Part shown: in pieces, positions 231 to 3,200 of the stretch | Numbering within the stretch: position 1 is the first letter of the stretch | How the letters are laid out: every line of letters starts with the position of its first letter | Source of the DNA: Yuukianura sp. NJ FZ-2021 | Lineage: Eukaryota | Direction of reading: 5' to 3' | Length of the DNA stretch: 64,000 nucleotides | NCBI GenBank assembly: GCA_046563655.1 | Contig: CM102286.1 | Location: 248,001-312,000, forward strand | Made by a program: the position numbers and the translations under genes | Notes under the pieces: generated by a model | What the model was told of the DNA's origin: nothing | What the model saw: only the letters and a program-made list of their open reading frames with translations | The model's database searches: none

Positions 231-3200
231 TTACTTGACACGATGCAGCGTTTTGCCCATGTTGATGCGAAGAAACTCCTCTCGACGGACGCAAGTATTG
301 ATCACCTTCTTGATCACAGCCTCTTCGTATTTCTAAAAACAAAATTCATTTCATAAAACTTTTCAAAAATTACAAAAATAACTTACTAACTTTAAAAAAA
401 AGTTCTTACTTGGCGAACAAAGTCTCTGATGATTGTGTCCTCCCCAACTTGAGCTCCGACGGTGAAGCGACGTTTCAGTTGAGTCTCCAGCCGAGATAGC
501 ATTTCCTGATCCTCCGGCGTCGTAAATCCTTCCACACCTTTCAAGACAAAGTCCAATCCAATTTAAATTTTTGAATTTCAACTGAAATTCAAGCACAATT
601 TAAAACTTTATGTGACTCACCTGCTAGAGATCCAGAACTGGCTGCTTCCAGCGTAGAAACTTGGAAGAGTCTCAGAGCTTCGTCAACATGAGTCTCCGTG
701 GCAAACGGCCTCAACTGCATTTTAGCCAGAGACTCCGCAATTCGAATGATGGCTTCCAGTTGTCTAAAAATAAGAAATCAAAATTTTATTTTCCCTTTCA
801 AAAAAAAATTCCAAAATCTTTTCAAAATGGAAATTTTCCATTACCTGACAGTAATGGAAATTGGATGTCTTTTGTCTGACTTGAGTTCTTGTTCATGGTA
901 GCCACTGCGCATGAGGACGTAGCGGTTCATCAACTTCTCAGATGCCGCTTCCGACAATCTCGGACCACAACGACTAAAAACAACCAAACATCAAGAAATG
1001 TCGACATTACGACATTGGTTGACATTTTGGACAAATGGCGACATTCTGGCCTTACGACTTGCAGTAGGCGATGTACTTTTTGAGGAAAACGAGTGACAGT
1101 TCTCCCTCTGCCTCCAATTGCTCGCCAGTCTTCTGAGCATCCATGTGAACTCGCATAACATGTTGAGCCATCCTCTGAAATTACCATAAATCCCAACATT
1201 TAAATTATAGAAGCTACATAAAAAGTAAATAGAATGTTAAAAAGTTGAAAAGTCAGATGGCCCCTGGGCACTTGGCAGCATTTCATTGGGAGCTTGGAAG
1301 TGCTTCACTCCAAGTTCATCTCCCTCGAAATTTAAAACGTGCCTCTCATCACTCAAGTTTTAAAAAGTGAAAAACTAAAGAGGAGATGAGGAATTTTGTA
1401 CCATGTCACGAGCGTCGTTGTGGTCATCTTTGACGATGAAGATCATGTCAAACCGAGACAAGATCGTCGGCATAAAGTCAATGTTCTCATCTCCCTTCGT
1501 CTCATCCCACCGTCCATATGGAGAGTTCGCTGCAGCAAACACAGCACACCGAGAATTCAAAGTTGTCGTAATTCCAGCCTAAGAATTAAAAAAAAAATTA
1601 AAAAGAAATTAGTCCGTTAATTAGAAAGTTCTTATCGTTAGTATTTACCTTAGCGATAGAGATAGTTTGTTGTTCCATCGCTTCGTGGATGGCAACGCGG
1701 TCGTCTTCCCTCATTTTGTCAAACTCATCGATACATACGACTCCACCGTCAGCCAGTACCATTGCACCGCCTTCCATGTAAAAGTTTTTCTAAAAACAGT
1801 TTTTCAATTTTTAGAATGGTTTTTGAATTTCCAACAGAGTTTTTGGATTTAGAATTTTGAGTCGTACCGTGACGGGATCACGGTTGACTGAAGCTGTCAA
1901 CCCAGCTGCAGAAGAGCCTCTTCCCGAAGTATAAACGGCAATCGGCGACACTTTTTCGACAAACTTGAGCAATTGTGACTTGGCCGTGCCAGGGTCACCG
2001 AGAAGCAGGACGTTGATGTCACCACGACGTGTGAGGCCATCCGGTAAACGTTTTCTGGAACCCGAGAAGAGCAGACAGGCAATTGCTTTCTTGATATCCT
2101 CAGCCCCATAAATACTGGGAGCAATTGATCTCGCAATTCGCTCATAACAGTCTGGACTGGCTGCCAATTTGCGAAAAGCTTCTTCTTCATCTGGTGTGTA
2201 AGTGACATGGGACGATCGTCCAGAACCATCCATGTCCCACTGCACTCCAACCACTCGAACGTAAGGAAAACGAACTCCAGCGGCCACTTTGTACTGTGAA
2301 GATTTCTGTGGAATGTAAAAATTAACCGTTAGAATTTTAGATTGGTCAAGTCATAAGGAAATAGTAAAATTTACTGGGAAATATCGAACCCTAGCCCTGG
2401 TTAGAAGTTTGGAATGTCAGAAATGTTTCTCACCGCTGTGTTGCTAGCTTTCTTGATGGAGTAAATGCCCATGATCGTGACACGATTTCCTGGGGCTGCT
2501 TTTTCACATAAAAATCTAAACATCAAAAGATTCGATCAAGCATAGAGCAGAATCTTGCAGTTAGTAGCTAATTAGTTTACCTGTCAACGTAAAGTGTCAT
2601 GTGTCTTGGCATTTCTCCAGAGGGAACTGCTTCTGGAGACTCCTGGAGCTTCAGTACTTGGAAATCAGAGCACTTAGATTTGTCTGGAATAATAAAGTAG
2701 GGATCCAACGGACACTTTGCATCGCCAGGCTGCATTCCACTGTTTCAACAAATTCAAAAGTTATTAATGTCAACCACGATGCCTTGTTTGAACAATTTCC
2801 AAATGAAACGTACACATTTGTAGCACATTTCCTTGGAAGAGCAAATCCGTCCATTCCAGGATTGATTTTGAGATTTGAGACGACAGAGTGACAGCTACGA
2901 CACATGATTGAAATGGAGTCAGCTTTGGATCGGATTGCAGTCACTGTCAAAATGATACCAGAAATCTTCACCAGTTTGTTCATGTTGTCAGACTGATCAA
3001 AGGAAAAAAAAATTATTAACATTAACCTGGAAGTAATTGAACTAATTGAACTTTTTCTTACCTTGAGATCGCGAAACTGGGATGAATTTGCGGAGGACGA
3101 TAACATGACCTGGATTGGTTTGACAATTTCTTCTCCGATGGGTCGTGGATAAGTGACTTCCTCCGCAACTTCCGTTGCTGCTGCTTCAAACTGAAAACAA

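Follow-up and report, generated by a model that had tools for sequence, protein, structure and literature searches.

A probable SNORD67 homologue, predicted to guide U6 C60 methylation, in an intron of an arthropod MCM5 gene

What does the one conspicuously long intron of an arthropod MCM5 gene carry, and is its content related by descent to a known RNA? We investigated this intron in the window (the whole 64,000-nt stretch of DNA analyzed), in which the host features are as follows.

231..3655, minus strand: host gene MCM5, modeled by hand with 14 exons and 745 aa
1175..1401, minus strand: host intron 9, 227 nt, phase 0, at a position shared with the snoRNA-bearing intron of three metagenome relatives (L092, L100, and L106)

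The longest exon (2302-1868, minus strand) matched solved MCM5 chains (E from 2e-65 to 8e-54), with other MCM subunits no better than E = 3e-34, and the gene model with its 13 hand-placed GT-AG introns gave one open frame of 745 aa. Both results bear out the first-pass annotation, which had assigned the intron to MCM5 and had called it 227 nt long and longer than its neighbors. The length is as measured (1401-1175 = 227 nt), but the figure of mostly about 60 nt for the neighboring introns was too low: the remaining 12 span 65-83 nt, apart from one of 128 nt, with a median of about 78 nt. The second-longest intron (2433-2306, minus strand, 128 nt) had no Rfam match at the gathering threshold and no box C/D pair on visual inspection. 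The arthropod origin of the DNA, also proposed earlier, is corroborated by 41 Chitin_bind_4 cuticle-protein matches among the 51 candidates scored. Elsewhere in the window, a tRNA-like match lies at 49578-49647 (plus strand, 30.1 bits against an Rfam cut-off of 29).

Intron 9 contains, on the host strand, a unit whose sequence features support its reading as a box C/D snoRNA aimed at U6 C60. Box C/D snoRNAs are trimmed to ends 4-5 nt before box C and 2-5 nt after box D, and the ends of the predicted RNA were placed by this rule.

1248..1357, minus strand: predicted mature snoRNA, about 110 nt
1346..1352, minus strand: box C, GTGATGA; RTGATGA kept in 3/3 MCM5-intron relatives, TGATGA being part of the pattern by which they were found and the purine lying outside it
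1339..1343, minus strand: 5′ strand of the box-proximal stem, GGCAC, identical in 3/3 relatives and outside the search pattern
1325..1328, minus strand: probable degenerate box D′, TCGA, read from alignment A3
1288..1324, minus strand: internal hairpin between D′ and C′, with a 5-bp basal stem and an apical hairpin
1281..1287, minus strand: probable degenerate box C′, AATGAAA, in kink-turn register with D′, read from alignment A3
1267..1271, minus strand: 3′ strand of the box-proximal stem, GTGCC, whose TGC could instead pair with U6 67-69
1257..1266, minus strand: guide, 10 nt, complementary to host U6 56-65, with G1261 facing C60
1253..1256, minus strand: box D, CTGA, located 78 nt ahead of the 3′ splice site

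The layout described in the first-pass annotation agrees with these positions: boxes at 1352-1346 and 1256-1253 give a C-to-D span of 100 nt, the guide (1266-1257) directly adjoins box D, and the distance from box D to the 3′ splice site, earlier put at about 75 nt, is 78 nt. The optimal distance is 60-90 nt; in the relatives, where the unit is likewise intronic on the host strand, it is 78, 101, and 140 nt. The canonical register of the terminal stem forms only its first pair (G1354-C1252), with a shifted stem further out, and L100 has four canonical pairs. Degenerate C′/D′ boxes stand in kink-turn register in the window, L106 (which has TGATGA at the box C′ position), and L092, and more weakly in L100. 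Across the four sequences, 95% of basal and 79% of apical cells of the internal hairpin are paired, and three pairs changed on both sides. Whole-unit folding was no better than that of shuffled sequences (z from -0.9 to -1.3), and such z-scores neither support nor reject a C/D RNA. A second guide before D′ was considered and rejected: the stretch is not conserved, and its longest U6 match upstream is 4-6 nt.

The host genome yielded two U6 matches, both of which carry the complement of the guide (10/10) at positions 56-65. The ACAGAGA box lies at 41-47 in both copies, i.e., the numbering is that of human U6, which places C60 opposite G1261, the base five positions upstream of box D; the guide:U6 duplex has a free energy of -20.1 kcal/mol. 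Complementarity to U6 56-65 and selection of C60 by the D+5 rule had both been proposed in the first-pass annotation, and host U6 agrees with it on both counts. Its further statement that U6 Cm60 is guided by SNORD67 accords with a list that pairs the two (PMC7960923) and with the report that Snord67 knockout in mouse and human cells removes U6 Cm60 (PMC12048515). In the SNORD67 model G1261 corresponds to G97, and a G97C change at this D+5 base fails to rescue Cm60 in mouse cells (PMC12048515). C60 sits in the lower internal stem-loop of U6, between the G59-A76 and C61-A73 pairs, which are named next to bulged U74 (PMC13109388). One of the two host U6 copies (L002:1501-1607, G000:C8) differs by several changes outside the target site (94.9 vs. 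111.9 bits) and has an AT-rich upstream region; it is possibly a variant or a pseudogene.

A real snoRNA might have another RNA, such as an rRNA or a pre-mRNA, as its main or additional target, and 10-nt matches are indeed common in mRNA. The perfect D+5 register on U6 C60, which is the validated target of the SNORD67 family, and the lack of a conserved second guide before D′ make this very improbable on a target comparison that covered host U6.

We examined how often such a layout arises by chance and how many copies the genome holds. The window contains one instance of RTGATGA followed downstream by any U6-antisense 10-mer plus CTGA, and the same layout appeared in 0/300 first-order Markov simulations of the window. 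The guide plus box D (14 nt, exact letters) occurs once in the 98.7-Mb genome (reversed control: 0), and this unit gave the only SNORD67 match among 48 scored of 5039 candidates; single-copy status rests on exact letters and on this candidate scan, and very diverged paralogues could remain.

We scanned metagenome contigs for TGATGA, a gap of 65-95 nt, the guide, and CTGA, which returned 118 loci in 52 clusters. Seventeen clusters (64/119 matches) have in common short motifs downstream of box C and upstream of the guide, by a stem-motif rule that was written after the data had been seen. The box C purine, which lies outside the pattern, is present in 17/17 of these clusters vs. 10/35 of the others (Fisher P = 4e-7). 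The 35/52 clusters without stem motifs were treated as chance matches, many of them resembling a single bacterial coding motif that we take to be PEP synthase.

MCM5 matches flank the unit on both sides, at the same junction as in the window, in three of the 118 loci (L092, L100, and L106), the contigs of which all come from one assembly and thus represent one community. Their flanking exon pieces share 64-90% protein identity with the window; identity to the window is 38-50% in the intron flanks, 47-78% in the middle of the unit, and 100% in the stem strands. The C-to-D spans across the MCM5 group are 100 (window), 96, 101, and 101 nt. This was the comparison with MCM5 introns of relatives that had been proposed as a check, and it placed the unit in the same intron of three relatives.

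These relatives bear on two further explanations. The unit may be a decayed or unexpressed copy, as its weak terminal stem and degenerate C′/D′ boxes would allow; yet guide plus box D are single in the genome, and boxes, stem, and guide are intact in three relatives while the flanks drifted, which leaves decay with a very small probability. Alternatively, MCM5 may use the conserved stretch as an alternative exon or a splicing element, or the match may be due to chance; in the window one frame is indeed open for 40 codons across the unit. The spans of 100, 96, 101, and 101 nt break this frame, however, and the relatives have stops, so that a coding or alternative-exon reading is ruled out; the presence of the unit beside unrelated genes and its failure to arise in the simulations also count against an MCM5 element or chance, and we regard this explanation as virtually negligible.

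Is this snoRNA SNORD67 by descent, or only its counterpart in function? At the gathering threshold, Rfam returned one tRNA only from the whole window and missed the unit. The first-pass annotation had proposed a search against SNORD67 and other U6 guides, and in a local scan the best Rfam match of the unit was SNORD67 (RF00573; 31.1 bits, E = 7.8e-5), with none of SNORD94, SNORD7, SNORD8/9, and SNORD10 appearing down to E = 10. The SNORD67 cut-off of 35 bits is an annotation threshold, not a biological feature; the unit lies 3.9 bits under it, and a standard Rfam scan therefore misses it. The alignment placed the model's box C on an internal GAGATGA, not on the real box C of the unit. The MCM5-intron relatives scored 35.6 (L100, over the cut-off), 32.9 (L106), and 30.3 bits (L092), and among 19 control loci, i.e., loci with the same box and guide pattern letters by chance, four were listed, the best at 23.1 bits. 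Of 20 metagenome loci searched against Rfam, 13 matched SNORD67 at E ≤ 0.01, 10 of them over the cut-off (one, the vertebrate-like copy L045, at 105 bits), and the other 7/20 had no SNORD67 match at E = 0.01 or better.

A leave-out model (R2), built from 12 non-MCM5 sequences, gave 47.5 bits for the window, 50-57.8 bits for L092, L100, and L106, 31-40 bits for four members whose stem is shifted or altered, and at most 26.9 bits for the 35 control clusters, each represented by one sequence. In the kinase-hosted L011, L079, and L098 and in the L053 group, the shifted proximal stem includes the first one or two guide bases.

The unit is most likely a SNORD67 homologue by descent, because it resembles SNORD67 outside the boxes and guide as well. 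The rival explanation is a U6 C60 guide of independent origin, equivalent in function and nonhomologous. It would account for a host gene that differs from that of vertebrates, for an RNA middle that is not alignable to SNORD67, and for a score under the Rfam cut-off, and the stem strand beside the guide could converge if it also paired with U6 67-69. Against it, the Rfam consensus, L045 (105 bits), and the window carry the same bases in the same register after box C and before the guide; the stem shows a compensatory change from U-A to G-C; the spacing from box C to guide is similar; the leave-out model sets the unit about 20 bits over the pattern-only controls; and host switching is common among snoRNAs (PMC3511168). 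Independent origin is, in our judgment, very unlikely. Of the first-pass proposal, a functional equivalent of SNORD67 in a different host gene, the different host stands (MCM5 here, CKAP5 for vertebrate Snord67; PMC12048515), and mere equivalence is too weak a term, given the homology beyond boxes and guide.

The hosts of the relatives were sought among their same-strand neighbors. These are a cyclin (Cyclin_N) at L014, a helicase at L026 and L009, a kinase weakly matching an HRI domain at L011, L079, and L098, an actin-family gene (under the cut-off) at L077, and a CXXC protein at L089; a Pfam match was absent in 11/20 frames scanned next to family members. The largest cluster carries what we take to be a cyclin-B destruction-box motif. 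The host of L045 received no name from Pfam or PDB, and its atlas leads, under 0.9, were CLASP_N (40% of members) and XMAP215_CLASP_TOG (11%); it is presumably CKAP5. Judged from these neighbors, the SNORD67 family moves between hosts, because its relatives adjoin about six genes besides MCM5. It is established that snoRNAs relocate from one broadly expressed host to another (PMC3511168; PMC2655684).

For the window, the L006 group, L014, L089, and L045, the hosts (MCM5, cyclin, CKAP5, and a CXXC protein) seem connected with cell division, and the kinase, actin family, and helicase do not; the cases are few. SNORD36 matches over the Rfam cut-off lie upstream of SNORD67-like units, and on their strand, in two loci unrelated to each other (L027:1593-1670, minus strand; L053:1153-1226 and 1872-1946, plus strand), which suggests shared multi-snoRNA host genes. 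Two near-identical SNORD67-like copies occur 4 kb apart on one contig (L042:959-1061 and 5002-5104).

Taking the homology, conservation, and copy number together, we consider it highly probable from the sequence comparisons that the unit is a genuine SNORD67 homologue, conserved and present in one copy, in a host gene new to the family.

The feature shared across the family is a 5-bp stem that joins the bases after box C to those just ahead of the guide. Over 20 aligned sequences, 90% of 100 stem cells are paired and 14 cells changed on both sides, some of these two-sided changes being artefacts of alignment A2, in which the stem rows of L011, L079, and L098 are out of register. None of 500 shuffles was as high, a result inflated by the relatedness of the sequences, and slid registers gave 9-56%. 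The first pair varies among U-A, G-C, and G-U across the family. Pairing probability of the stem was ≤ 0.02 in 10/21 isolated sequences and 0.77-0.94 in the four MCM5 ones. The Rfam SNORD67 consensus contains the complementary letters, left unpaired in its structure line.

One reading of this stem, for the whole SNORD67 family including that of humans, is a strand-exchange switch displaced by U6. The GCA of the 5′ strand would mimic U6 G67-C68-A69 and keep the UGC ahead of the guide occupied until incoming U6 displaces GCA. The resulting duplex of 10 + 3 bp, in which C66 stays unpaired, would open the catalytic stem-loop at its 5′ arm and loop. A mismatch followed by UGC is found in 16/21 representatives, UGC abuts the guide in three more, and the base facing C66 is G in 0/21; extension of UGC onto U6 67-69 adds about 5 kcal/mol. 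Against strand exchange, the L053 group changes the pair facing A69 on both strands, so that the stem is kept and the U6 pair lost. A protein-binding role would explain the invariance of the stem equally well, and we consider the switch rather unlikely.

By analogy with the SNORD67 family, the snoRNA would be transcribed with MCM5 and freed from intron 9 by splicing and trimming. The box C/D core proteins fibrillarin, NOP56/58, and 15.5K would assemble on the C/D kink-turn and on the degenerate C′/D′ kink-turn around the internal hairpin, with the short stem after box C and before the guide framing the guide. [quoted passage not shown] LARP7 and TFIP11, which assist mammalian U6 methylation (PMC10557570, PMC11019748, PMC8599867), would help; we infer all these steps, from processing and protein assembly to methylation, from the family. 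A search of the host for LARP7 matched xRRM nowhere and gave one RRM_3 match (L123, G000:C1:3875683-3878922), in a gene that by its motifs we take to be La/SSB. A LARP7-binding motif has reportedly been described for U6 guides.

SNORD67 and Cm60 have been studied in mammals, where their loss alters splicing and tumor spread (PMC12048515). Among the papers listed in searches of the open-access literature, none showed an invertebrate SNORD67 or an invertebrate C60 guide, and MCM5, intron, and box C/D snoRNA together gave no match. SNORD67 is unnamed in the supplements of PMC3511168 and named in lists in those of PMC4914119, and a literature search for SNORD67 with Rfam genome annotation returned the rhesus monkey only. 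Nine non-vertebrate-like metagenome copies pass the Rfam cut-off, so invertebrate SNORD67 genes may already be automatically annotated.

An arthropod homologue suggests that the guide dates to the common ancestor of arthropods and vertebrates, and the U6 Cm60 mark, beside the catalytic center, is probably equally old. The surprise is modest, since host switching by snoRNAs is already known. The unit offers a single-copy intronic target for probing the role of Cm60 in an invertebrate, and the conserved stem, absent from the Rfam structure, would improve a model that misses this copy.

Among known systems, the unit resembles SNORD67/HBII-166 (RF00573) in its 10-nt guide abutting box D, its D+5 target C60, its length of about 110 nt, its intronic location, and the short motifs that follow box C and precede the guide. 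It differs from SNORD67 in its host (MCM5, not CKAP5), in the first pair of the proximal stem (G-C, not U-A), in the sequence of the internal hairpin, and in its score (31.1 bits vs. the cut-off of 35); function has been shown in mouse and human cells only. SNORD94 (U6 Cm62), SNORD7, SNORD8/9, and SNORD10 are likewise box C/D guides on U6, and the SNORD94 target lies in the same arm of the U6 internal stem-loop (PMC7960923), but unlike in any of these, the register here puts D+5 on C60. Drosophila mgU6-47, mgU6-68, and pugU6-40 are, like the unit, arthropod guides of U6 modification (PMC3884663), but they target other sites, and the term C60 is absent from the main text of that paper. The RNA is of a known kind, and its lineage (arthropod) and host gene (MCM5) are new.
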